From Trueperaceae bacterium (GTDB taxonomy: Bacteria; Deinococcota; Deinococci; Deinococcales; Trueperaceae), in assembly GCA_965215565.1 (NCBI GenBank), contig CBDCDZ010000004.1, positions 256,001 through 320,000 of the forward strand: a stretch of 64,000 nucleotides of DNA. Direction: 5' to 3'. Below the pieces are notes generated by a model. That model saw only the letters and a program-made list of their open reading frames with translations, did no database searches and was not told the DNA's origin. Below, piece after piece: positions 9,193-27,085 of the stretch (positions within the stretch are counted from its first letter, which is position 1; each line of letters starts with the position of its first letter). The translations under genes and the position numbers were made by a program.

Positions 9193-9468
9193 TTAGTTCG
9201 TAGCTGGTAGATAAGCTACGTGAACTGTGACTACTGACAAGTCGAGCCCGAGCTTATCCTTGGCTAATTTTACAACGGCGCGGTTGACGAAACCCAAATC
9301 GACATCTCGCCAGCCGCTGCGTCTGCGGAGCACGAAACGAGACCCCGAGACGACGAGGGTGGCTTCCCATCTCACCCGCTGCTGGTAGTCCGTGTAAACG
9401 AGGACGCCATCCCCGTTTTGCAAGGTGATCGAGAGGTCTCGAGCACCCTGCTCGTAGTTGAACTGCAT
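9193..9468 (-). CDS. small hypothetical protein (ORFan-like)
   Basis: ATG at 9468 preceded by GAGGAAAG; followed by a hairpin plus U-tract at about 9143-9177. Confidence 0.6.
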   Translation of the reverse strand: MQFNYEQGARDLSITLQNGDGVLVYTDYQQRVRWEATLVVSGSRFVLRRRSGWRDVDLGFVNRAVVKLAKDKLGLDLSVVTVHVAYLPATN

Positions 9469-9602: not shown

Positions 9603-10442
9603 TTACAAGGTGGCGAGCGCGAATAGCACGAAGTAATTTGTGAACATCCGCACGTAGGAACGCCGCGTGGTCAGCCAAGACGCCCGCATCTGCGGCGTGA
9701 CCACTTTGCCTCTTCTCTTGAGACTCGTCTCGGTCAATCGGACTGACAGCGCGATGACGAAACCTTGCAGATAGAGAGCGATAACGCCGCTGAGAAGCGC
9801 GAGGACAAACGACATGACGAGGTCGTATATGGAGACCTCAACCGTGCGCAGCTTCAGGGCTTCACTAGCCGTTAGCTGCAGAAACAGGTCCCCGCTCACT
9901 TGCGTCAGTAAGCTGGCTCCTACGGAGAATAGTGCGAGCACGCAAGCGTACATGGCGCAGAACTGGAGCCGTTTCCGCAGCGGTACTCGCTCCCCGTCAG
10001 GGCGTGAGAGGCTCGAGGTATATGCAAAATCTCCGCCTACTTTAAGAGGACCCCTGACGACCTCGAGGACGACGAGTGCGGTTGGCCAATCCTCAAGAAA
10101 AGGGATGAAGAACTGGAACATCCAGCCTACAAGGAGGGTGCTGCCGATGTTTTTCAGCAGCGTCTTTGCGCCCTCGGCTGTTTCCCACCGGGGTGAGAAT
10201 GGGCTGTGCGGCGGATGCGCCGTCTGTTCTTCAAGTTGCTCGGTCTGCTCCGCTTCTATACCTGCTCGAAAGCCTTGCCTATAGGCTTGGTCTTTCGCCC
10301 GCTCCAAGTCCCGCTGCAAGAGCAAGCGGCAGGCGTGGAGGTCTGCGCTGGTGAGATTTGCGGGGGCGACTGAGGGGCTCCCTACATCGCTCATCAAAAA
10401 GTCAAGTAGCTCTTTTCCGTTTTGTCGATTGTCATAGTTCAT
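9603..10442 (-). CDS. hypothetical membrane protein
   Basis: 279 aa with several hydrophobic segments; TAATCT -10-like box 5 nt before the ATG; no family recognised. Confidence 0.7.
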   Translation of the reverse strand: MNYDNRQNGKELLDFLMSDVGSPSVAPANLTSADLHACRLLLQRDLERAKDQAYRQGFRAGIEAEQTEQLEEQTAHPPHSPFSPRWETAEGAKTLLKNIGSTLLVGWMFQFFIPFLEDWPTALVVLEVVRGPLKVGGDFAYTSSLSRPDGERVPLRKRLQFCAMYACVLALFSVGASLLTQVSGDLFLQLTASEALKLRTVEVSIYDLVMSFVLALLSGVIALYLQGFVIALSVRLTETSLKRRGKVVTPQMRASWLTTRRSYVRMFTNYFVLFALATL

Positions 10443-10800
10443 GGCAAAGATTAAGTAAACGCCACCCCTAAATTAGCTTATTTTCGTCAGGGACGTGCAA
10501 GTAGAGACCGAACAAGGAGCTAAACGCGGAGGTGAAAGAGGAGAGGGACTGTATCTTTTTAGGCAACGCGCCCCTCTAGTTGTGCATTTCGCTGTCCTAA
10601 GCCCCTTAGAAGAGGTTAGATACCTCTTCAATCCGCAATTTAAGGTCTGAGTCTTGGGCATCTTGATAGCTTCCAACTATCGGAACGCTGTTCAACTAGC
10701 GTGTTAAGAAAATCACGGACCTTTCGCGGTGTTAGGCTGACTAAGCCCAGTGTAGAGGGGCAAAGGACAATGATAATTTAGGCTCCCCTCAGGGAGCAGG

Positions 10801-12837
10801 ATGAAAAAAATGTTGAGGAAAATCGCCGGTCTAGGGCTTGCCCTAGGCCTTGCTTTTACAGGTGCTGCCGTCAGCCCTGTAAAAGCAGTAGAAGAAGAGG
10901 TGCGCTCCGAGCGCATCTCACCCGTTCTCACTGAGAACGCCGCCAGCGCCGACGCTGGCAAAAAAGAAAAAGAGGTTGCGCCAGTCGCGCCTCTCGAAGG
11001 AGCCTTCTCCTTCGTACCCTTCAGTGGCAACACTGAAGCTGCTAGCGCCGACGCTAGCGAAGAAAAGAAAGAAGAGGTTGCACAAAGTGCGCCTCAAGCT
11101 CTCGGCGGCGAGAGCGAAGCGGCTGCACCAGCAGCCATGAATAATTGCGTCCCGTTCAAGCGGGTACGCTGTCATTCAAACGCGCCACCTGGCGCGGAAC
11201 CGGTAGTAGCGGGCCGTCCCGCTGCGCAAAATGTCGCTCATGACCCCCGGTCTGAGCGATTGGTAGGTAGAGGTGTTGACACCTCGAGCCTAGACAAGGC
11301 TTGGAAAAGGATTCATCAAGGGGCGGACATCAATATGTCGCCCCTTAATGACTATTGGAAGAGGCGACAGGAGGAAATCGCCCCTCCCCCCACCTCTTCG
11401 GAGGTGACGCCTTTACCAAAGGTGGAAACTGAGGCGCAACCTCACGCTCCGCCAGAGGGCAATAACCAAGCCGAGATCGACTCGGCACCGTCCAACCGCG
11501 AAAGGGTTGGAATAGAAAAAACCTCAACGGATGTTGAGGGAGGGGCACAAAATCAGGAGGAACCCGCCTCTCCTGCAATTGAAGTTGAACTTGATGAAGA
11601 GGTCATTGAAATACCGGAGGAGCCGACCTCTTCATCTGTCCAAAATGAATCAGAATCTGTGCAAATACAAGCACAGGAGGAACCAACTAAGACAGGTTCT
11701 GATTCTGTCACCGAGGGTGACAACCTTACAGACGAAGATGCGCAGGTTGAAGCGTCCGAATCTGTAGTTGAAGAAAATGTAGTACAAACACAGGAGGAAT
11801 CCGTAGATGAAGCGTCGGGAGGAAACGCCGGCCTAGAAGACAATGTTTCCACAAACGAGAGCGGAAATGCAGAGTCGCTCGAGTCACAAGAAAACCTAGA
11901 GGTACAGGAGATCTCCAACGAAGCGTCAGAGTCTGGGAAGGCTGACGCGGATTTAGAAGAAACTATTCCCGCAGACGAGAGCAACATCGGTGCAGATGAT
12001 GGGCTCGAGTCACAAGAAAACTTAGGAGTGCAGGAGACTCCCAATAACGAAGCGCCAGGGGACGGGAACCTTGACGCGGATTTAGAGGAAACGATTCCCG
12101 CCGACGAGAGTGAGATCGATGATGAACCGCTCGAGTCGGTTGAAGAAGTTGAAGAGGGTGGCCCCCCGGAAATTTCGACAAGTTTAGGATTCACCGGCGT
12201 CGGTGACGAAGAGGAAACCCCCACGTTTGATGTGGGCGTTGGCTTCGTCCAAGATGATTTCGGTGTTGAAACGATCATCAAAACCCCTGTCGGCGGGGGT
12301 GAAACAGCCGTAGACGCAGAAGTTACGCTACCTTTTTCTGAGATAACGTCTGTCAGCTTAAAAGCTGAAGACCTTCTCTCGGAAGGTAGCACCATTACTG
12401 CCAGTGCAGATATTCAAGTGTTGCCAAACTTGATCGTCAGCCCTGGCATCGAAAAATCCTCTGACGAGGCGCTCAAGACCAACCTGAGTGCAGCGTTACA
12501 GGCGACAGAAAATTTGGCTCTAGCCTTTGATATTGAAAACGTCGCAGCAGAACCCGTTTTCAATATCGAAAGTAACCTCGTGCTTGGCGAGCATGAGGTG
12601 GTAGCTAGAATCAAAGACGTGTCCAAAGCAGCACGGACATTCGATCTGGAGGGCTCTATCCAGGTTGTCGAATGGGCAAGAGCCCGCGTCAAATTCGAGA
12701 GCATTTTCAGTAGTCCAGTCGTAGGACTTGGGGCTGACCTTCAACTCACTCGCAGCACCGAGTTGAATGTCGGCGTCAACGACGCCTTTGGGTCCCAGAC
12801 CTACGACGCGAAAATTAAGTACACGTTTGGCTTGTAG
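10801..12837 (+). CDS. secreted acidic protein with probable C-terminal outer-membrane beta-barrel
   Basis: Signal peptide; long Glu-rich disordered region with an internal duplication of about 42 aa (LESQENL..DADLEETIPADES x2); C-terminal ~220 aa of amphipathic beta-hairpins ending IKYTFGL; GGAG RBS and TGATAAT upstream. Confidence 0.75.
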   Translation: MKKMLRKIAGLGLALGLAFTGAAVSPVKAVEEEVRSERISPVLTENAASADAGKKEKEVAPVAPLEGAFSFVPFSGNTEAASADASEEKKEEVAQSAPQALGGESEAAAPAAMNNCVPFKRVRCHSNAPPGAEPVVAGRPAAQNVAHDPRSERLVGRGVDTSSLDKAWKRIHQGADINMSPLNDYWKRRQEEIAPPPTSSEVTPLPKVETEAQPHAPPEGNNQAEIDSAPSNRERVGIEKTSTDVEGGAQNQEEPASPAIEVELDEEVIEIPEEPTSSSVQNESESVQIQAQEEPTKTGSDSVTEGDNLTDEDAQVEASESVVEENVVQTQEESVDEASGGNAGLEDNVSTNESGNAESLESQENLEVQEISNEASESGKADADLEETIPADESNIGADDGLESQENLGVQETPNNEAPGDGNLDADLEETIPADESEIDDEPLESVEEVEEGGPPEISTSLGFTGVGDEEETPTFDVGVGFVQDDFGVETIIKTPVGGGETAVDAEVTLPFSEITSVSLKAEDLLSEGSTITASADIQVLPNLIVSPGIEKSSDEALKTNLSAALQATENLALAFDIENVAAEPVFNIESNLVLGEHEVVARIKDVSKAARTFDLEGSIQVVEWARARVKFESIFSSPVVGLGADLQLTRSTELNVGVNDAFGSQTYDAKIKYTFGL

Positions 12838-13312
12838 GGTTCGATCTCGAGCGGGTTAGCTACCGCTCGAGATCAGCTAAAAGCCAGCGTCTACTCGTCC
12901 TATCGCAGCACGGGCAGTAGACGAGACGACGTGTATCCTGAGGGGAGTGTCGCACTTTATGAGGTTACTCAAACGGTAATCTCGCTAGCATTCGCAGCAC
13001 GCTAGCTTAAAGTGTGACGAATCAATTTCAAGGTGTCAGACCCTGCCGAACCCTGCCGCCAAGGTAGGGAGTCATCTGTTTTTGTCTAACAGATAGTCTA
13101 GGGGAAGGCTGACCCGGCGTGCAGTTATGCACGCCGCCGAGCGAAAAAACGACGTGGGTACTTTGTACGTATCTGCGTTGCTGACGATGCCGAACTGTTT
13201 AGTGTTTTGTTTACACTAAATGGTCTTGGGTGATCCGGCGCGAAACTTGAAGTTTAATTTCAAAACCCTCTCTCGAGGTCAACCAGAACCCCTCCAAGGT
13301 TCTGGTTTTTTC
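12838..13312 (+). ncRNA. candidate structured 3'-trailer RNA with GCAGCAC loops
   Basis: Stems 12843-12874 and 12888-12923, a 3-way junction closed by GTCGCACTTTA/TAAAGTGTGAC, and CGGCGTGCA/TGCACGCCG; ends in terminator AACCAGAACC-CCTCCAA-GGTTCTGGTT-TTTT. Confidence 0.55.
13281..13312 (+). terminator. intrinsic terminator
   Basis: 10-bp stem followed by a T-run. Confidence 0.85.
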
Positions 13313-13339
13313 TTGCCGCTACCTTGAGTAGGTATTAGA

Positions 13340-13804
13340 TAGCAGGTATCATCTGGTCAGAGACACTCTCACTCTACAAAACAATGTCTAGCACGCACTT
13401 TGAAGGATGATACCTGCGCTCATCCGTCTCAGTATGTTTTGGAACTGCCAAAAGTCTGTCTCACTACGTTCGGAGCTGGTTTGAGTGTACTAGCAGGTAT
13501 CATATGGTCAGTTACACTCTCACCAAAAAGAACATCGCCTAGCACGCACTTTCAGGGATGAAGTTCCGCAACGGCAGGGTGGCCTGCCCGTAACGCTAGT
13601 TCTTCGAACTGAGATCTGCGGAGAAGTGTTGCTTCGCATGACTTCGTCCAAGCAACGATAAGTGGAAGTGCTATACGCAATCTTGTGAAGCAATACTCTC
13701 ACTGTAGAAAATACTGCTCAGCACGCACATTATGAGATGAAATTCCGCTAGTCCTTACGGACAGAGACCTGCGGCACTCCGTCTCAATATACGGATACCT
13801 GCTA
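13340..13804 (+). mobile_element. cluster of three MITE-like repeat copies (TAGCAGGTATCA family)
   Basis: Copies at about 13340-13448, 13491-13673 and 13690-13804 share CACTCTCAC..AGCACGCAC..GATGAA..GAGATCTGCG..GGAACTGC with the other copies in the window. Confidence 0.85.
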
Positions 13805-13937
13805 AATCTTATAGAATGCTTACAAATCACCGTGTGCTCTCTTTTCGTTACACTACTATGTATCAGAGTTCGGCGAAGCGTTCCTCTGCTGGACGTCAAT
13901 TCAGAGGTGCTGGCAGCCGCCTTATGAGGAGAAGAAA

Positions 13938-16265
13938 ATGCGATATTCGTTTGATCAGATGCGCAGCTTGCGCCTTTTGCTAACCTTTTTGCTGGGGTGT
14001 CTCGTATCAACGTACGGCTCAGCGCAGGTGGGCGAAAATCTCCTCCAAAACGCTAGCTTTGAAGGCGAGATTGGTTGGAATTTGGGAGTGGACGCTACTG
14101 CGCAAGCGAGCGGCGGCGTGGAGAGCGGCGCTTACTGCGCGGCGGTGGAGCGCGGTGGGGATGAGCCCTGGAGCGTCGCCCTGCGGCAAGACGACTTCGC
14201 GCTGACGAGCGGTCTCTACACGCTTAGCTTCAGCGCCTACAGTGCAGCCGAAGTTGACGCTAAGGTGGGCGTTAAGGTAGGTCAGGCGCAAGCGCCTTAC
14301 ACCGAATACTTTTACCAAGAGCGAACCGTACCAGGTGAGTCTACGCTCTACAGCTTCGAGGCTGAAATTTTCGTCGACGAACCCGATGCGCAGCTCGAGC
14401 TGTTTTTAGGTGGCTCCCTCGGCAACGAGGGCGCAGCGCTCTGCTTCGACGACGTCGTGCTGAGCAGGCTCGCGGCGGAAGAGCGCACTCGCGAGTTCCC
14501 TTACATCATGGTGGATCAGTTCGGCTATCGCCCGGTTGACCCGAAAGTCGCTGTGCTCGTCGATCCGCAAAGGGGCTTTAACGCGGACGACACGTACGTG
14601 CCGGGTGAATGGCTCGAGCTGCGCCGCGCCGACGACGAGCGCGTGGTCTTCCGAGCCGCGCCGACGCCGTGGCGAGAGGGCGACGTGCAGTCTACTTCGG
14701 GCGACAGAGGTTGGTGGCTCGACTTCAGCGAGGTCACGGAGCCGGGCAGCTACATCCTCTATGACCCCGACAACGAGGTACGCTCGTATCCTTTCGACAT
14801 CGCTGAGGATGTCTACCACGAGCCCTTCAAGGCGGCGGTGCGCATGTTCTACTACAACCGCGCCAACCTCGCCAAGGTAGAGCCCTACGCCGACCCGCGC
14901 TGGCGCGACGGACCGTCTTTTATGGGACCCGGACAGGATACCGAGGCGCGTTTCGTCGAGGATAAAGCGAACGTTTACACAGCGCGCGACCTCTCGGGCG
15001 GTTGGTTCGACGCGGGCGACTACAACAAATACGTGACCTTCGCCCACGCGCCGGTACACATGCTGCTCAGCGCGTATGAGCAAAACCGCGAGGTGTTCAC
15101 CGACGACTTTGACCTGCCCGAGTCGGGCAACGGTGTTCCTGACCTCATCGACGAACTCAAGTGGGAGTTCGACTGGCTCAAGAAGATGCAAGTCGCTGAG
15201 GGCGGGGTAATTATCAAAGTGGGCAATATCAACTTTAACGCGGTGTCGCCGCCGAGCGAGGACCCGCGCCCACGCTTTTACGGACCGCTCTGCTCTTCGT
15301 CTACCATTGCGGCGGCTAGCATGTTCGCCCACGGCGCGCTCGTCCTCCGCGACGTTGCGCCGCTCGCCGAGTACGCCGCAGACCTAGAGCGGCGTGCGGT
15401 GCGGGCGTGGCGCTGGTACGAAAAGAACCCCAAACGCGAGGACTGCGACACCCAAGAGATCAAAGCGGGGGACGCAGATCGCTCGCTCGCCGAGCAAGAC
15501 GCGATCCAAGCGGTGGCGGCGGTCTACCTCTTCGCCCTGACAGGCGAGCCGCACTACCAAGACACGCTCATGGAGACCTACGCCAGCACGCGCCCCTTCG
15601 CCGACGCCGCGCCGCGGTGGTCTATGTACAACCCCGCCGAGGGGGACGCGCTGCTCTACTACACCACCTTGAATGGGGCTGACCGCGCCCTGCAGCAGCG
15701 CGTCCGCGAGGCGAAAGTCGGCGGCGCTTACGGCGCGTCTAGAGCCATCTACCAATTCAAGGAGGTGCAAGACCTCTACCGCGCCTACCTGCCGGAGGAG
15801 TCTTACCACTGGGGCAGCAACTACGTGCGTTCGGCGCTCGGCAATACCAACTTAGACATGCTGCACTACAGTCTCGACATCGGGGCGCACCCCCTTTACG
15901 AAGCGAAGGCACTGGGCATCGTGCACTACCTACATGGTGTCAACCCGCTCAACCTGGTTTATCTGACCAACATGGCTGAATTTGGCGCGGAGCGCTCCGC
16001 GAGCCAGATGTGGCACGACTGGTTCGCTGACGGTACGGTCTGGGACGACGCTTTAACGAGCGAGCGCGGACCCGCGCCGGGTTATATAACAGGTGGACCC
16101 AACGCAGCTTACTCGGGTCAAGCCGCGCCGCCTGCAGGCGAGCCCGCGCAAAAGGCCTACCGAGACTGGAACTCAAACTCGGGTCAACCGTGGGAGATTA
16201 CCGAACCCGCCATCTACTATCAAGCTGCCTACGTGAGACTACTTGCGAACTTCTTGGCGCGCTGA
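13938..16265 (+). CDS. glycoside hydrolase family 9 (CBM4 + Ig-like + GH9) secreted endoglucanase
   Basis: Signal peptide; CBM4; IMVDQFGY.P..PKVAV Ig-like N-domain; DLSGGWFDAGDYNKY; C-terminal EPAIYYQAAY; GAGGAG RBS. Confidence 0.93.
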   Translation: MRYSFDQMRSLRLLLTFLLGCLVSTYGSAQVGENLLQNASFEGEIGWNLGVDATAQASGGVESGAYCAAVERGGDEPWSVALRQDDFALTSGLYTLSFSAYSAAEVDAKVGVKVGQAQAPYTEYFYQERTVPGESTLYSFEAEIFVDEPDAQLELFLGGSLGNEGAALCFDDVVLSRLAAEERTREFPYIMVDQFGYRPVDPKVAVLVDPQRGFNADDTYVPGEWLELRRADDERVVFRAAPTPWREGDVQSTSGDRGWWLDFSEVTEPGSYILYDPDNEVRSYPFDIAEDVYHEPFKAAVRMFYYNRANLAKVEPYADPRWRDGPSFMGPGQDTEARFVEDKANVYTARDLSGGWFDAGDYNKYVTFAHAPVHMLLSAYEQNREVFTDDFDLPESGNGVPDLIDELKWEFDWLKKMQVAEGGVIIKVGNINFNAVSPPSEDPRPRFYGPLCSSSTIAAASMFAHGALVLRDVAPLAEYAADLERRAVRAWRWYEKNPKREDCDTQEIKAGDADRSLAEQDAIQAVAAVYLFALTGEPHYQDTLMETYASTRPFADAAPRWSMYNPAEGDALLYYTTLNGADRALQQRVREAKVGGAYGASRAIYQFKEVQDLYRAYLPEESYHWGSNYVRSALGNTNLDMLHYSLDIGAHPLYEAKALGIVHYLHGVNPLNLVYLTNMAEFGAERSASQMWHDWFADGTVWDDALTSERGPAPGYITGGPNAAYSGQAAPPAGEPAQKAYRDWNSNSGQPWEITEPAIYYQAAYVRLLANFLAR

Positions 16266-16305
16266 CGGTTGACGCTCGAGACATACGCCGAGCCTATCCA
16301 AAGGA

Positions 16306-16331
16306 AAACGCCAGCGTTTAGGCTGGCGTTT
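16306..16331. terminator. bidirectional terminator hairpin between convergent genes
   Basis: AAACGCCAGC-GTTTAG-GCTGGCGTTT. Confidence 0.75.
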
Positions 16332-16348
16332 AAGACCGTAAGGGGTAA

Positions 16349-16714
16349 TTACGGTTTGTAAAAAGCTCTTAACCGGGCAACAGTCTGAAGTTGACGGAGC
16401 TGCCAAGTCGAGACTTCTCGGAACGCCTCGAGCCGAGCCTCAGTACAAAGCCGGAGCATCGCGAGTTCTCGGCGGTGCTCGCCTCCCCTGTCGGAGAGGT
16501 CAGCCTCGGCGTGCCGCTCCAACTCCCCGATGACCCGTAGCTGCACTGCCACGAGGTCAACGTCGAACGTGCCGAAAAGCTCGCGGCTACTGCCCTCCAT
16601 AAAGCAGTAGCACTGAGCGTCTGAAAACGGCTTGAGCTGCTCAGTACTTTCCAAGGTGAGCGCATCTTTCAACCTCAGCAGTTCTCCTCTGAGACCTTCG
16701 TATGGTTGTCTCAT
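16349..16714 (-). CDS. hypothetical protein
   Basis: 121-aa helical-looking ORF ending next to the terminator; no family recognised. Confidence 0.55.
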   Translation of the reverse strand: MRQPYEGLRGELLRLKDALTLESTEQLKPFSDAQCYCFMEGSSRELFGTFDVDLVAVQLRVIGELERHAEADLSDRGGEHRRELAMLRLCTEARLEAFREVSTWQLRQLQTVARLRAFYKP

Positions 16715-17078
16715 GACGTTATACCGATAGTAATACTGAACTGAAAGAATGATGGCGTAAATTGAGAGCGTCTGAGGGTACGCGCTGAGAAGCCCTTAGC
16801 CAGAGGTCTAGCGGGAGCGGGACCACGCGACTGCATCTTTGAATCAACGCGCGTCGATAACGGCATAACACGCCCAGCTAAAGGCTCTTTTCCGCGCGGT
16901 TTAGATGTCAAAAGTACGATATCTAAACTTCACTTTAGTATAACAATCACGTTTAGCTTAACCTCTTGCGCGGCGCTTAAAGAAATTTAGGCAGCGCCGT
17001 CGCGCAGCCTAGCAACCTTGTCCGTTGACTTAACCCCACTCGCACGCTGAGCGCTTGCTATGCTCAGCATCAAGAACC

Positions 17079-18078
17079 ATGCACCGCAAGCGGTTCTTAG
17101 AAAAGAAACTGCGGGGAAAGGAGGTCATCCTGAACGCTCTACGCATCTCGTTCGAAAAAACCAGCCCTTTGCCGTGGTTTCTGTCACTGCAAACTCTACA
17201 AAAGAAAAGAATGACAGACACCAACAGAAAGTTCGCTGAGCGTGTGGCTCAGCTCGAAAGAAGACGCGCACAGAACGAAGCGCGCGCAAAAGAATATACG
17301 CCGTCAGGGAGCAAAGCGTTTTGCTCAGAGAGCGCGAGTTAGAGTCGCGTCTCGAGGCGTGCGACATCGTGCTCACGGGCGATGAGCGCGAGCTTAATAA
17401 ATGTGAGACAAGACTCCTTATTCTGGAGCAAGAGCTTCAGAGTAAAGAAGAGGTTGTCGCCGAGTTGGAGAAGCGCATCGTGCGCCCTTCAGATTCGGAA
17501 GCGCCTTCACTGAGCAAACTGGAAGCTCGAGAAGCGCAAGTAGATGAGGCTGATGCGCGCGTTAGTCAACTCGAAAAGGCGCTCTCTAGGCGAGACGTTG
17601 TCTCCGACGCGCCGCATGTCGAGATAGAGGCAGCGCCAGCCCTGCCGGAACAGGAGCTTAACGTCAGCTCCGCTGACGATCCTTGGAAAGCGCCTGAAGG
17701 CGCTCAAGCTGGAGCGCAACCGAGTGCTCTAAGCCCTTCAGAAGAGGCTGAAGCGCCCGAAGTCGAAGAGGCTGAACAGGCTCCGCCTGAAACGCCCGAA
17801 GAAGCCGAACGTGCAGAACGCGCACGTGACCGGGCTAAAAAGGTCCTGGGATACCTACGTGGTTATGGACGACTGCAGGGTTCGCCGGAATCCTCAGCTA
17901 CATCATAGTTCTTAGCCTCGCTTTCGCGCCGGCTCCATACACCCCTTCGTGGGGACCTGCCGTCCGCTACTTCTTCGAGGGCGATCAGCAGAAAAAGCTG
18001 GAGGAAATCCAGAAGCGAAATGCCGAGCTGGAAAAATTGAAAGAAGAGAAGGAGCGTCAGGAGGACCCCACCCGCTAG
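17079..18078 (+). pseudogene. coiled-coil/acidic membrane-anchored protein split by two -1 frameshifts
   Basis: Three consecutive frames join if one A is added at the A4 run 17288-17291 and at the A5 run 17837-17841. The last segment, KGPGIPTWLWTTAGFAGILSYIIVLSLAFAP...EDPTR*, is a TM helix plus coiled coil. Start is 17079 or 17211. Confidence 0.65.
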
Positions 18079-18375
18079 AACTTTGACAGTTCGTTAGATG
18101 AGATACCTCGAGCATCCCTTCCCTACGCTGCACTTAGGGAAAATGAGCGCCGCTGCACTCTGCGCTTCTCTTGTGAGCCTCGAGGTTGAGAAGAGGACTT
18201 CTTGGTGAGCACTGCTGCACCGCTCCACCCAGGAAACCGCCTCTACGCTCGTCCGCTCTACGGGCGAGTATCTCTTGGGTCAACGCATCTTCTACATGTG
18301 TTGACCGCGTTTACGGGTGAGAAACCATCCTTTTCTCACTTCTGAATAGACCCCGACTGGGGTCTATTTTTTTTG
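18079..18375 (+). ncRNA. candidate structured 3'-trailer RNA with three GCTGCAC loops
   Basis: Hairpins TTCCCTA-CGCTGCACT-TAGGGAA, GAGCGC-CGCTGCACTCT-GCGCTT and GAGC-ACTGCTGCACC-GCTC; enclosing helices ACCTCGAG/CTCGAGGT or GAGATAC/GTATCTC; ends in a terminator. Confidence 0.6.
18346..18374. terminator. intrinsic terminator (possibly bidirectional)
   Basis: AATAGACCCC-GACT-GGGGTCTATT-TTTTTT. Confidence 0.88.
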
Positions 18376-18799
18376 CTCCTGTGGCGGTTTGAACAGAGGT
18401 GTAATACCCTTTCCGGTTAAACACGCTACAAAGTAGTGTGTTTAATCCCGAACAGAGTGAGTAGAAACAGCGACGGATTCCGGTGAGTAGCGGAAAAATG
18501 CGAATGCATTTTGTAGTGGATTCACCCGGAATCCGTATAAATCACGCTAACTTGAAATTGGCGAGTCATGGGAAAGAAATCACAAATGATATTGTTAGGT
18601 CTTATTTTAAGAGGATAGGCTAGCGGGGTAGTCGTGTGAAGTTTGAAGAGGTAGAGTTGTATAAGCTGAGGTGCAAACACAGGTTTCATAAGCGAAAGCG
18701 TCAGGAAGATTAAAGAAGGGGAGATGTAAGCGGAAAGCTCACATCTTAAAGTCCCCGAAAGACGCTCAGATTAGCTCTGAGCACCTAAAATGTGTCGGA

Positions 18800-19924: not shown

Positions 19925-20578
19925 TTTTTTCTTTGTAAATTTTCAATGTGCACGGTTGCTGAGCAACCTGGCGCAGTGCGCCATCATGAGTTGCCAAAGC
20001 AACCCGACACGAAAGACAGTGTTACATATCAACTGGCACGGCGTGAGGCTAACGGTTTTGACCTGTCGCGACGCTTAGATGGTTGTACGCATCCCATTTG
20101 CCACGCTTGCTGATACGTGCGTGAAATTTAGATAGTGGCTCTACTTGAAATGAAACTAATGTCAAAACAAGGTGTTCAACCCCCTGTTCATCACGTGGAG
20201 ACGGCAGAGAGAGCACGCGGCGGCATTCGTCTTAGAACCGCCACCAAAATTTGCTAGGAAACTAACGCCTTTTTTCTTGCCGCAATGGAGGGTGTTGGGT
20301 ACTTCTTCGGTGAAGATGAGAGTGCGTTATACATATATTCATTCTAATTATGAGGACTTGAAACGTAATGACGCGCTGTAGTGAATGGACTTTTTAGTAT
20401 GGAACAGAGCGGCCACAATTTTGAGAATAAGCGTTCAGAACAGCGTTTCTCGTGCTACGTAGACGACTTAAATAGTCCGACTTTGGACTACGTAGCCCAT
20501 TACGTACGCGGTTTTGCGGATGTGGAAAACTTAACAAACCTTCATAATCGTCCTACAACCACTCAAAGGGAGGACATC

Positions 20579-21229
20579 ATGAGTCGTTTTCTTAATCCGT
20601 GCACGAATACCAGCGCAGAGCCTAGGCAACCCGCCTGGCAACGTTACGAAGATTTCGAGGAAAGGTTGCCCAACCACGTGTTGGCGCAACGTGTAGCGGC
20701 TGCGGCCGGCGTCAGCACGCAAAGTGTGATCCGCGCGGCGCGGCGGCGCTACCGCAGCGAAGGCAAACGTGACCGCAGGCGCTTAGACGGTTGCCCCTAC
20801 ACGTTCGTGAGTCTGTCTCTCTGGGATGATTATATGCAAGTCGGTCACATCTTCCGCGTGCCTGAGCGCCCTGCCGGTTGGCTCACCGTCAAAGCGGTGA
20901 TCGCCCAAGGAATCGGCAAGCGCCGCGTTTACGAACTCATTCATAGCGGCGACTTAGAAGCTGTGTACGTGGGCAACACCATGTTCGTCGAGCCCGACTC
21001 AGTCACGCACTACCTGCGCGAACAGCGTGAGTATAAGCCGTGTGCGGGCTGGGTGCTCGTAAGCGAGGTGTACGAGAAAGCGGGCACTTCGAAGCAAGCG
21101 CTGTCGAACTACCTCAAGCGTCACGGCGTCCAGACGCGCCGCTTCAAGCACCCGGTAAGAGACCAGCATGTCGCTTACATGCCCGCCGAGGATGCCGAGC
21201 GCTACCTCGCCATCCCGAGAGACCGCTGA
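20579..21229 (+). CDS. DNA-binding protein with tandem HTH domains including an excisionase-like (HTH_17) domain
   Basis: GGGAGG RBS before ATG 20579; WLTVKAVIAQGIGKRRVYELIHSGDLEAVYVG..V...SV..YL; further HTH-like segments at both ends. Confidence 0.7.
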   Translation: MSRFLNPCTNTSAEPRQPAWQRYEDFEERLPNHVLAQRVAAAAGVSTQSVIRAARRRYRSEGKRDRRRLDGCPYTFVSLSLWDDYMQVGHIFRVPERPAGWLTVKAVIAQGIGKRRVYELIHSGDLEAVYVGNTMFVEPDSVTHYLREQREYKPCAGWVLVSEVYEKAGTSKQALSNYLKRHGVQTRRFKHPVRDQHVAYMPAEDAERYLAIPRDR

Positions 21230-22104
21230 TGCGCCCCTTACGTGGTGCTGCTTGCGTTATGGTGGCGCTACTCGTCGGGGGCGCGTTCGCGCAGAACTTC
21301 ACGCTGCGCTACCTCGATCTAAGCGACCTCTTCCACACACCTGCCACGCTCACGCTTTCGCCTGACTATCAAACCACGCTCCAGTTCGAAGGGTTAGCTG
21401 TCGAGCAGGTGAGCACGGGGCGCGCGGACCTGCTCACCGCCGAGGTCTCAGGGAGCACGATCCGGTTGCGGGCGAACGCGAGCGTCATCAACACCGACCT
21501 CACGGTTATCGCGGGGGGACGCACCGCCCTCTTCACCCTCCGGGCTGATCCTACCTCGGACGCTCCGCGCCACTACCTCGTCCGCGACTTGCCACCCGCG
21601 CCTCGAGGACCACCCCAAGCATCAATTCAAGAATCAACCAGGTCATCTACTGATACATCTGAACGTGGAGGGAGCACCGGAGGTGGCGATAACCAGCTGC
21701 AGGAAAGCCGCGCCGACTTGAGCGGGTCCGCGCGCAGCGTCGTGTCGCTGCCCGGCACGGATTTTCAAGCCTCGGCGTACCGCAACGGGGACGAAGTCGT
21801 GATCCAGTACGTGCTCAGCAACGTAGGAGACGATCCGCTCCACGTTGATCCGCAACGCCTCAAGCTTCACTACGGCGACGCCGAGTTGCCCTACACCCTC
21901 TGGCGCGTGCCCGAGCGTAAAAGCGACATCCGCCTAGCGCCCGGCGCGTCCGAATATGGCACGCTCATTATCTCGGATCCCCCACAGGGCGCGGACCGCG
22001 TCCTGCTGCGCTGGGTGCTCTCGCGCATCGGCTCGTCGACGTTCGGCACGCTCGAGTGGAACCTCACCCTGCCCCCCGTGACAGAGGGGTTGACGCAGCC
22101 CTAG
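21229..22104 (+). CDS. secreted VirB9/TrbG/TraK-like conjugative core-complex protein
   Basis: TGATG overlap with the previous gene; signal peptide (AFA/Q); L.LSPDYQTTLQF...I.LRA...TDLTV..GGR...F.L pattern; linker and a second beta-rich domain. Confidence 0.55.
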   Translation: MRPLRGAACVMVALLVGGAFAQNFTLRYLDLSDLFHTPATLTLSPDYQTTLQFEGLAVEQVSTGRADLLTAEVSGSTIRLRANASVINTDLTVIAGGRTALFTLRADPTSDAPRHYLVRDLPPAPRGPPQASIQESTRSSTDTSERGGSTGGGDNQLQESRADLSGSARSVVSLPGTDFQASAYRNGDEVVIQYVLSNVGDDPLHVDPQRLKLHYGDAELPYTLWRVPERKSDIRLAPGASEYGTLIISDPPQGADRVLLRWVLSRIGSSTFGTLEWNLTLPPVTEGLTQP

Positions 22105-23591: not shown

Positions 23592-23650
23592 GATTATCCT
23601 ATCTTATTGTAATTGTAACTTCTCTTAGGCGCTGAGCACAGTATATCTCG

Positions 23651-23836
23651 TAGCAGGTATCATCTGGTTTGAAACACTCTCGCTTTTTAGAACATTGTTT
23701 CGCTCTGCGAAAACTGCGTAAGCAGCACGCACATTTTGAGATGAAATCCCGCAACGGCAGGGCGGCCTGCCCGTAACGCTAGTCCTTGCGGACAGAGATC
23801 TGCGCCCCTTTGTCTCAGTATGTTTTGGAAATGCTA
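23651..23836 (+). mobile_element. MITE-like repeat copy
   Basis: TAGCAGGTATCATCTGG...GTATGTTTTGGAAATGCTA. Confidence 0.85.
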
Positions 23837-24049
23837 TCGGTATACGCAATACGAATTCCGGTTGATTCGCTAGCACAGCGAATCAAGCCGAGCGAAATCT
23901 TCAGCTGCTCAGGTGCAGGTCTTGCCGGAGACGCAGGAGCGTCCGGTCCCTGGACCTCTCGCTCGAGGGTTCGTCCTTAGGTGCGCTTGTCAGTTATGAC
24001 CGCACCGTCTTCCGAGGTAGACTTTTGTATATGGACGTAACGAACAGAT

Positions 24050-24598: not shown

Positions 24599-25912
24599 AT
24601 GGACCATGATGATACCCTCGGCGAAAGACGGCGGCGCGGCGTCCCCTGGCAGGAGAAGGCGGACGGTTATCAGGCGTATCAGCCAGCACCTGCGTCCTCT
24701 GCCGAGGAAGACGAAGAGCATATTAGGGATGAACAAGGTGCAGTAACGCCTAACGGGATTCCAAGCGCGCAGGGGCGCGTTCAGCGTCCGACGGGACCCG
24801 TTGCGGCTACGGGTGCGACACCTTCCACATCAACCGCTACCGCCAAAGGAACGCAGGGCGAGCCAAAGGTGCCGCGCAAAGGTCAGAAAAGTCCCCAGGA
24901 GACGAAGGCGATGTTGGCGCGTCTCAACCGCGAGGCTAGGGGCGTAGAGGACACCAAGCGGAGCGCGCGTCAGACAGAAGCTGCCCTGAAACGCAGGCGC
25001 GACGCGGCTGTAGCGGCTCAAAAAGGAAAGGCAACTGGTAACGCGCCCGCCCGTGTCACCCAGCGCCGCGCCGACGGGCGTGAGCGCGAGGTGCAGATGC
25101 GGCGCATCCGTCAGGACCGCAAGCGCAGCTTCTTCTCTCGGCTCGTCGAGCGGCTGCGCCACAAAAAGGTGGAGGAGGACGAGCAGCAATTAGGGGTGCT
25201 GGACCGGCTGCAGCGCGCACGTCTAGCGCGGCAACAGCGCCGCGAGCAAGCCGAGCTTGCCGCCGCTTACCGCGCGCGTTTCGAGAAGCTCGAGCGGACG
25301 CGCAACGCGCAGCGTCAGAAGGAGGGCGGGCGCGGCGAGCCGAAGGGCGTGCGCGAACGCAGCACGAAACGCGACGCCCAAGATATCGAGGCGCGCCTGC
25401 GCGACCGCGCCGAAAAGAAGTACCGCGAAGAGCGCGAGCGGCTACTCAAGCGCTACCGCGAGGAGCGCAGGCGTTTGAGCGCGCGCTACCGCGCCCACGC
25501 GGGCCGAACTGCTCAGGGAGGCGGACGTGCGCAGCCGCGTATACAACGGTTTCTAAAAACCCTGCGCCAGCGCCGCCTCATACGCTACCGACAGGTGCGC
25601 CGAGTCCGGCGTCTCAGGCGGGTCCGGCGAACGCGGCTGAGGATAGAGCGCGACCGGCTCGAGCGTAACCGCGAGTTGAGGCAGCGCGAGCAACTCCGGC
25701 GCGAGCAGGTCCAGCGCGAGCAAGCAAAGCCTGATCCGAGACGAGAACCACGTCACCGAGACCAAGAGCGGCGTGAGAGGACACGTCTCAACGCTGAACG
25801 TGCCGAGCGCCAACGCCGCGAGCGGCGCGTTCGTCAAGATAGGGAGCGGGAGCGCCGCGTGAGAGACCGCGAGCGGGAGCGGCGAAGTCGGGCGCGGCGC
25901 GAGCGCCGCTAG
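24599..25912 (+). CDS. extremely Arg/Glu-rich coiled-coil hypothetical protein
   Basis: 437-aa ORF; TAAACT -10 box 7 nt before the ATG; RER/RDR-rich C-terminus. Confidence 0.65.
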   Translation: MDHDDTLGERRRRGVPWQEKADGYQAYQPAPASSAEEDEEHIRDEQGAVTPNGIPSAQGRVQRPTGPVAATGATPSTSTATAKGTQGEPKVPRKGQKSPQETKAMLARLNREARGVEDTKRSARQTEAALKRRRDAAVAAQKGKATGNAPARVTQRRADGREREVQMRRIRQDRKRSFFSRLVERLRHKKVEEDEQQLGVLDRLQRARLARQQRREQAELAAAYRARFEKLERTRNAQRQKEGGRGEPKGVRERSTKRDAQDIEARLRDRAEKKYREERERLLKRYREERRRLSARYRAHAGRTAQGGGRAQPRIQRFLKTLRQRRLIRYRQVRRVRRLRRVRRTRLRIERDRLERNRELRQREQLRREQVQREQAKPDPRREPRHRDQERRERTRLNAERAERQRRERRVRQDRERERRVRDRERERRSRARRERR

Positions 25913-26676: not shown

Positions 26677-26755
26677 AAGTAGAGGGTCTTACGCAGAACT
26701 TTAGCTTTAGCGCTTTCTATTGTAACCCAGCCCCCCGCGTCTTGCGCACATTATA

Positions 26756-26932
26756 TAGCAGGTATCATCTGGTCAGCTTGGGCGAAGCCATGCGAAGCAA
26801 CGCTCTCACTAAGAAGAACATCGCCTAGCACGCACTTTCAGGGATGAAGTTCCGCTATTGCTGCGCAATGAGATCTGCGGAGAAGTGTTGCTTCGCATAG
26901 TTGCACTCAAGCAATGATAAGTGGAACTGCTA
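26756..26932 (+). mobile_element. MITE-like repeat copy
   Basis: TAGCAGGTATCATCTGG...GATAAGTGGAACTGCTA. Confidence 0.85.
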
Positions 26933-27085
26933 ATAAAACGCGAACCAAAACGCTTCGCGAGCTAGCGGAGCGCAGAGGTCAAGGCGCGCTTCGTCAAACG
27001 TGAGACAGTCACGGGTAACCGGGCTGTTTCATAGTGGAAAGACTTGGGCGCGCCTCGCGGGGTAGCCTAGAGTGAGGAGGACGAC

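Follow-up and report, generated by a model that had tools for sequence, protein, structure and literature searches.

Two envelope-protein messages of a Trueperaceae bacterium present a shared motif in hairpin loops

Two envelope-protein genes of a Trueperaceae bacterium, here called gene 1 and gene 2, have predicted mRNAs that are packed with hairpins and present the same short sequence, (C)GCWGCA(C), in eight hairpin loops. Both genes lie in a 64,000-nucleotide (nt) stretch of DNA (G000:C4:256001-320000, hereafter the window) from a near-complete genome of 4.49 Mb, and each is followed by a long structured 3' trailer (trailers 1 and 2). The motif signal is real and is local to these two loci. 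We tentatively favour reading the loops as a private, multivalent, cis-acting tag for one putative sequence-specific RNA-binding protein that would treat both messages alike. The analysis was wholly computational. A literature search at title and abstract level, with most subscription journals outside it, found no description of the motif or of the architecture.

Results

The same loop sequence on eight unrelated stems

A first-pass annotation of the window had described five loops with the motif, two on trailer 1 and three on trailer 2. All five are present where it had placed them, but they are not the whole set, because three further copies lie inside the coding sequence of gene 1. GCWGCA occurs nine times in the two transcripts: eight copies are in hairpin loops, of which the gene-1 coding end has three (12544, 12628 and 12752), trailer 1 two (12905 and 12994) and trailer 2 three (18127, 18152 and 18214); the ninth, at 11122, is in a stem. 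The loops are 10-13 nt long and share five invariant columns on stems that are unrelated to one another, as the first pass had seen for its five. With three of the eight copies lying inside a coding region, we assign the signal to the mRNA. The position W segregates by locus, being A in 5/5 loops of the gene-1 mRNA and U in 3/3 loops of trailer 2. This split had been missed earlier, as had the hairpin packing of both whole mRNAs and a unique perfect complement of trailer-2 loops in gene 1.

In long sequence context the motif loops of trailer 1 are unpaired with probabilities of 0.91-1.00, and those of trailer 2 are softer (0.35-1.00 per base). The loop at 12994 is enclosed at 0.16 in a 77-nt window and at 0.99 in longer context. 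An in-frame relic of a duplicated coding repeat was rejected as the source of the copies, the one at 12994 being out of frame with that at 12752.

Recurrence against shuffled and native sequence

Two blind tests recovered the motif. In the first, the most shared degenerate 6-mer was sought among the 96 loops of both transcripts; GC[AT]GCA came out on top, in 6/96 loops, a count reached by 1/1000 loop shuffles. In the second, with another folding scheme and 104 loops, C[AT]GCAC was found in eight. Among 94 random native gene pairs the best motif reached 3-6 loops (6 once), so that 0/94 match, and four further hairpin-packed units, taken alone or in two pairings, gave 2-5 loops with a shared motif. 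The motif is absent from the loops of these four units, so folding alone does not produce it. Genome-wide, 256 of 2150 copies are loop-placed, and only three clusters exist among them, two of which are the gene-1 and gene-2 loci. As sequence alone the recurrence is weak, the same count being reached in 9/1000 shuffles but in 141/2532 real intergenic pairs (repeats unmasked), and a degenerate 7-mer is common to three loops on 15/3154 intergenic strands.

These counts bear on the possibility that the loops are a by-product: the mRNAs would have been selected only for folding, as a form of decay resistance, and the loops would recur by local duplication, because of Ala-Ala and Arg-Ser-Thr codons at turns of the barrel, and by chance agreement between the two loci. 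The coding copies do coincide with codons at beta-turns, two loops sharing a 7-mer occur on 89/3154 intergenic strands, there is no genome-wide use of the motif, and the trailers each carry another repeated loop type, not the same in both. The stems share no sequence, however, so no duplication is visible; five of the eight copies are non-coding; and the observed count is reached in 1/1000 shuffles and 0/94 native pairs, with at most 4-5 in the other hairpin-packed genes. We therefore consider a by-product quite unlikely.

Two structured trailers

The trailers were folded over 12838-13320 and 18075-18380 and compared with 100 dinucleotide shuffles each. Both are strongly structured, with z-scores of -7.06 on the + strand and -4.98 on the - strand for trailer 1, and of -5.11 and -4.13 for trailer 2. 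The + strand folds better, as is expected if G-U pairs matter in the + strand RNA, which fits RNA and not cruciform DNA. The two are non-homologous, their longest common sequence being 8 nt, and each ends in a terminator-like stem followed by a U-run, in line with the earlier description. Three hairpins with UUUGU loops (13070-13099, 13150-13180 and 13186-13235) stand 3' of the motif hairpins in trailer 1, and two with CUCUA/CUUCUAC loops (18247-18269 and 18278-18306) in the same place in trailer 2.

Both trailers are single-copy by blastn and part of trailer 1 had a match in 0/40 relatives, on which grounds we rejected a repetitive extragenic palindromic (REP) or miniature inverted-repeat transposable element (MITE)-like origin. 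In line with the first pass, which had named no described family with this loop motif, Rfam gave 0 matches in the window at the gathering threshold. The best sub-threshold match was to the S-adenosylhomocysteine (SAH) riboswitch on the - strand (19.9 of 37 bits, E 0.25), and a further scan gave E 3.3 or worse. The SAH likeness, at 18138-18234 (-), is built from the complements of two trailer-2 motif hairpins. It was rejected as a riboswitch, the score being below threshold and no gene following closely downstream.

The first pass had likened the trailers to sponge RNAs of the CsrB/RsmZ type. Repeated loops on variable stems ahead of a terminator would suit a free-standing RNA of this kind, or else a signal at the DNA level (a cruciform, a methylation site or an origin site). 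We nevertheless regard these as the least likely of the readings weighed here. A sponge is at odds with the three copies in coding sequence, with only 2-3 copies per trailer, with the lack of a promoter-like site at the start of either trailer and with the lack of a CsrA, Hfq or RNA recognition motif (RRM) gene in this genome; a DNA signal is at odds with the better folding of the G-U-rich stems on the + strand. The three roles that the first pass had proposed, as a platform for a protein, a 3' RNA that presents seeds or a localisation signal, may each still apply.

Two hairpin-packed messages

To rank hairpin packing, 3772 crudely called open reading frames (ORFs) were each compared with four synonymous-codon shuffles. 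Gene 1 ranked 2/3772 (hairpin cover 0.31 vs 0.10 in the shuffles; z 6.0). Back-to-back hairpins run from its leader to ~11540 and again from 12300: in 150-nt windows z is -3.9 to -8.1 over 10800-11400, -6.4 at 12300 and -5.1 at 12500, with a weakly folded middle (11500-12200, z -0.1 to -2.5). Gene 2 is moderately packed, its 17321-17908 frame having z 3.4 and rank 14/3772. This frame is cut short in the assembly, where a G is lacking after 17847. The extra G is present in contigs of runs X1 and X2, and the homolog P0007 reads through the transmembrane helix to the same C-terminus as the corrected gene; gene 2 therefore spans 17321-18078, and trailer 2 starts at 18079.

Both leaders hold TCAGGGAGCA (a 10-mer with 9 genome copies) and pair their purine tract in a hairpin. 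The 5' arm of the gene-1 leader hairpin (10783-10793) is a perfect 11-nt complement of the linker at 12937-12947, between the two trailer-1 motif hairpins. None of 200 leader shuffles reaches this, at least 11 nt are found in 38/3528 genes, and the minimum-energy fold of the whole mRNA retains the local leader hairpin despite the complement. Like the W split and the gene-1 site described below, this complement was found after ~10 pairings had been tried. At gene 2, a 43-codon upstream ORF overlaps the start, so that translational coupling is possible.

Two envelope proteins that look imported

Neither gene is a strict ORFan, as the first pass had called them, homologs having been found for both. 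The gene-1 homologs begin at ATG 10810. A profile search with gene 1 returned 18 proteins at E 0.001 or better, those looked up being from ENA, JGI/IMG or Logan; the locus of this family was met in none of the genome, metagenome, viral, plasmid or phage collections, and 127 family and 363 phylum genomes gave weak matches only (E 2e-3 to 2e-4), among them one in the unpublished genome G110 that supports nothing claimed here. AlphaFold 2 predicts a barrel of 16 strands for residues 451-675, with a predicted local distance difference test score (pLDDT) of 77-94 per block. The best Foldseek matches of this barrel are 16-strand porins (R. blastica porin, E 1e-8), and an Atlas search with it found porin-like or unnamed clusters only. 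In the disordered linker of gene 1, at ~11280-11370 (residues 159-187), a short Trp-containing helix recurs in close homologs and is a possible binding motif. For gene 2, an Atlas search gave no match and the tail of the gene had a match in 0/5 genomes. Searches of PHROGs and NCBIfam gave no significant family.

GC content at third codon positions (GC3) is 0.51 in gene 1 and 0.53 in gene 2, both below the genome's 5th percentile (0.56), and so the two genes look imported. A link to small plasmids was rejected, as tblastn of 14 island proteins matched no plasmid contig.

A putative protein-binding tag

The computed features (the motif and its place in loops, a non-random recurrence, the folding of the two mRNAs, the architectures of their proteins and the foreign codon usage) could come together as follows. 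Two imported genes for envelope proteins, the first an outer-membrane barrel on a long acidic tether, the second a single-pass membrane protein with an acidic linker, would each be transcribed into an mRNA that is folded over nearly its whole length. Its ribosome-binding site would be paired up, and a long structured 3' trailer would lead to an intrinsic terminator. In so folded an RNA the loops would be nearly the only readable sequence, and the 3' parts present (C)GCWGCA(C) loops, five on mRNA 1 and three on mRNA 2. One protein may bind the loops of both, and its effect may be protection from 3' decay, or joint gating of translation or of membrane delivery. The same consensus, with a tolerated position, on unrelated stems of both mRNAs is most simply explained as the binding site of one protein, for which CsrA with its GGA loops (PMC7652899) and U1A with its AUUGCAC loop (PMC13187837) are precedents, and copies overlaid with strong stems on coding sequence speak for the same reading.

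Comparison with a strain contig from run X1 touches these stems. It differs from the window in 26 letters over 12474-13366, with 6 substitutions among the differences listed. Three of the six fall in the coding-end stem (Table 1), and each pairs Watson-Crick with the window's opposite base, if that base is unchanged; the other three are outside stems (12726 and 12727 unpaired, 12710 beyond the stem). Motif hairpin 1 has rank 1/624 for codon-level pairability in the homologs P0001, P0002 and P0009, and of 624 positions those of the 12544 and 12752 hairpins are near the top for codon pairing in P0002, P0003, P0009 and P0004, in a score that alternating beta-strand residues favour.

A good deal weighs against a protein tag. 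The stem evidence rests on 6 of the 26 differences of one strain contig, two of the three stem substitutions are transitions, which readily give pairs, and the same contig has a 3-nt insertion inside the 12628 loop. The residues at the gene-1 coding loops permit the motif in close homologs only. The place of the motif within the loop varies between copies, and a tolerant protein does not require W to be split by locus. Searches of this genome gave no match for CsrA (PF02599, 0/1; control matches in 3/14) or RRM_1 (PF00076, 0/1; control matches in 2/14) and, with positive controls, no Hfq gene; the binding protein would thus belong to another family.

Nor is the motif used elsewhere in the genome above background. 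Of the 199 non-repeat intergenic copies, 21 are loop-placed, like ten control heptamers (3/84 to 13/199 and 11/93; 3.6-11.8%), and 69/2150 genome copies are on stems of at least 7 base pairs (bp), equal to the reverse-complement pattern. The motif complement shows no enrichment near gene starts in the genome. A genome-wide motif system was accordingly rejected. In two relatives (G001 and G002), 18 of 53 close motif pairs were examined and 0/18 had both copies in loops. Pattern scans of viral sequence yielded, among 228 loci listed, 5 non-tandem loci with two loop copies, all of one family; a member of it, L097, was rejected as a motif RNA, being the antisense of a Cys-rich ORF. The other top-ranked viral loci among the matches listed are tandem repeats.

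That the loops are instead programmed cut sites of a sequence-specific endoribonuclease, which would process or switch off nuclease-resistant messages, seems to us very unlikely. Most of what is unpaired in these RNAs is in the loops, and the sites stand towards the 3' end, so that cutting there would take off the protective trailer. No nuclease candidate is linked to them, however, and the 6-7-nt site occurs 2150 times in the genome without sign of special use.

Pairing between the two messages

A close rival to the protein tag, somewhat unlikely in itself, is that trailer 2, on the full mRNA or released from it, binds the gene-1 mRNA through its three loop seeds. Ten base pairs would form at 12486-12496, together with 5-6-bp kissing contacts to the GCAGC loops, which are possible because GCAGC is the reverse complement of GCUGC; the two messages would be coupled in stability, translation or location, without a chaperone. 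Several findings are consistent with this. Of 3914 ORFs, gene 1 alone has a perfect complement of at least 10 nt to two trailer-2 loops, and 12486-12496 is the only sense-strand copy of 7 in the genome. Duplex energies of the trailer-2 loops at this site are -17.4 and -19.9, and duplexes between loops of different loci (-9.9 to -10.7) are stronger than those within a locus (-4.8 to -6.9). The complete segregation of W by locus and the lack of Hfq also fit, and there are precedents in the hly-prsA2 (PMC8722363) and vigR (PMC9217812) 3' untranslated regions (UTRs). On the other hand, the complementarity emerged only after the ~10 trials mentioned above. The flanks that the loops share (5' C, 3' AC) make C-A mismatches in the kissing pair, which pairing does not explain. 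For the trailer-1 loops neither gene offers a 10-nt target, the best being 7-8 nt at 10861, inside a strong stem, and the docking site is 1.7 kb into coding sequence and partly paired.

An extended form of this idea, which we hold to be unlikely, is that the two mRNAs form a multivalent heterodimer via GCAGC/GCUGC loop arrays and the 10-bp docking site, co-regulating or co-localising the halves of an envelope complex, with a small co-imported protein perhaps clamping the shared GCAC. Pairing of the motif with 16S rRNA, which holds the complement GUGCUGC, was rejected, that region being helical in the ribosome.

If the loops bind a protein, motif and protein would form a new pair in post-transcriptional control, in a genome that shows no CsrA, Hfq or RRM gene, and the recognition signal would extend over coding sequence and UTRs alike. 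If they pair the two messages, they would be an example, in a bacterium, of multivalent docking between the mRNAs of envelope genes. In both cases, eight short loops and one locus-split base offer a handle on what hairpin-packed bacterial mRNAs do beyond resisting decay, within a reach of one species and two genes.

Comparison with known systems

The locus belongs to none of the families tested; by analogy, its most likely way of working is that of a multi-loop tag for a protein or of a regulatory 3' UTR with seeds in loops. CsrA ligands repeat a short motif, GGA, in the loops of otherwise unrelated hairpins and favour 6-nt loops on short stems (PMC7652899). The repetition of a short motif on loops of unrelated hairpins is what our RNAs have in common with CsrB/RsmZ. 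They differ in having GCWGCAC instead of GGA (no motif loop has GGA), in presenting 10-13-nt loops on long stems in 3-5 copies instead of ~22, and in that the loops are part of mRNAs, partly coding, in a host without a CsrA gene. U1A reads AUUGCAC in the loop of U1 snRNA hairpin II (PMC13187837). There, as here, a heptamer ending in GCAC stands in a hairpin loop with the stem as scaffold, and the trailer-2 loops share UGCAC with it; the U1A site is eukaryotic, its first bases differ (the consensus here is (C)GCWGCA(C), not AUUGCAC) and this genome has no RRM_1 gene.

Pairing of a 3' UTR with another mRNA is described for hly-prsA2 in Listeria (PMC8722363) and for vigR in S. aureus (PMC9217812). 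The likeness is a 3' UTR complementary to the mRNA of a second, functionally related envelope gene, predicted here from sequence at 10/10 nt for two loops. In contrast to those cases, three loops present the putative seed, the target is predicted to lie in the 3' third of the coding sequence, and the target RNA itself carries near-identical loops. Type I toxin mRNAs are 150-400 nt long and encode proteins of 20-60 amino acids (aa; T1TAdb, PMC8594479). They resemble ours in the structured 3' end and perhaps in a paired-up Shine-Dalgarno region, here predicted from leader hairpins in both genes, and, for gene 1 only, in a possible long-distance 5'-3' pairing. Our mRNAs are ~2.5 and ~1.1 kb with proteins of ~675 and ~250 aa, sizes that exclude membership, and no antisense RNA was identified.

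Table 1 Features of the two loci and their surroundings, in window coordinates
Feature	Position	Strand	Description
91-aa ORF	9193..9468	-	basic, beta-rich; family without a name; 4 metagenomic homologs, 67-78% identity
279-aa membrane ORF	9603..10442	-	divergent from gene 1; 0/127 family genomes
Gene-1 leader hairpin	10776..10802	+	pairs GGGAGC purine tract
Gene 1	10801..12837	+	678 aa; signal peptide, long acidic disordered linker, C-terminal 16-strand porin-like barrel (predicted)
Gene-1 docking site, 11 nt (putative)	12486..12496	+	perfect 10-nt complement of two trailer-2 loops; in hairpin arm, probability 0.58
Motif hairpin 1	12526..12570	+	gene-1 coding; long stem, loop with UCGCAGCAG; enclosed 0.98, unpaired 0.99
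Motif hairpin 2	12616..12642	+	gene-1 coding; loop AAAGCAGCAC; enclosed 0.76, unpaired 0.85
Three-way junction with motif hairpin 3 (12736-12771)	12718..12807	+	gene-1 coding end; loop ACUCGCAGCACC
Strain substitutions in stem	12733 with 12793, 12735 with 12791, 12739 with 12768	+	Watson-Crick with window's opposite base
Trailer 1	12838..13312	+	~ten hairpins; motif hairpins 4 and 5; three UUUGU-loop hairpins; terminator 13281-13307
Motif hairpin 4	12888-12931	+	trailer 1
Motif hairpin 5	12984-13006	+	trailer 1
REP/MITE-like repeat copies	13340..13800	.	not part of motif system
GH9 cellulase gene	13938..16265	+	between the two units; GC3 0.76 = native codon usage; z 1.6, not hairpin-packed
Upstream ORF, 43 codons	17211..17342	+	overlaps gene-2 start; frame read
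Gene-2 start hairpin	17309..17326	+	pairs purine tract with TTG start; leader has TCAGGGAGCA as in gene 1
Gene 2 (corrected)	17321..18078	+	~250 aa; coiled coil, acidic linker, one transmembrane helix, charged tail
Trailer 2	18079..18375	+	motif hairpins 6-8; two CUCUA/CUUCUAC-loop hairpins; terminator 18344-18369
Motif hairpins 6-8	loops 18125-18134, 18151-18161, 18211-18221	+	trailer 2

Neighbouring genes and other observations

The 91-aa ORF beside gene 1 has no significant Pfam or PDB match, was found in 0/363 other phylum genomes and in no viral contig. Its homolog P0027 is on an ENA contig that has the same length (17604) as the contig of the gene-1 homolog P0002. To propose it as a candidate loop-binding protein is speculative, a guess. 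The homolog of the GH9 gene in the relative G005 sits in a different neighbourhood.

A modular REP/MITE-like repeat with 12-bp inverted arms has many copies in the genome, in the window at 13340-13800, 23650-23840 and 26755-26935. It is present in G001, G002 and G005, whereas the remaining 37 of 40 relatives gave no match; some of its variants contain GCAGCAC. Repeats of all families together mask 156,778 of 602,900 intergenic bases. Elsewhere on the contig, a 560-nt structured region (G000:C4:445166-445726, +; z -6.5) lies 3' of a 732-aa gene, has one loop AUUGCACCC and may hold an uncalled small ORF. The 23.7-kb G000:C3 consists of about two tandem copies of an 11-kb plasmid and is probably an assembly concatemer.

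Within the window, a 121-aa ORF at 16349-16714 (-) has no significant family match and is somewhat hairpin-packed (z 2.9). At 20381-22104 (+) a tandem excisionase-like helix-turn-helix (HTH) gene, with a homolog in G005 only among 5 genomes tested, overlaps a gene that has three paralogs elsewhere in the genome. A 437-aa ORF at 24599-25912 (+), very rich in Arg, Glu and Gln and without a family match, adjoins a lytic transglycosylase gene.

Three further hairpin-packed loci lie outside the window. The most hairpin-packed ORF of the genome (L022, G000:C4:2827202-2829832, -; z 8.6, cover 0.49 vs 0.22) is an 876-aa gene with a weak C-terminal GNAT match, and its coding part has no GCWGCAC loops. 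At L023 (G000:C4:4371278-4374138, +) an alpha-amylase-like and an MFS-like gene are both hairpin-packed (z 5.2 and 3.7). L024 (G000:C4:3582040-3582918, +; z 3.9) is a 292-aa gene without a Pfam match that adjoins a 16S rRNA gene on the opposite strand.

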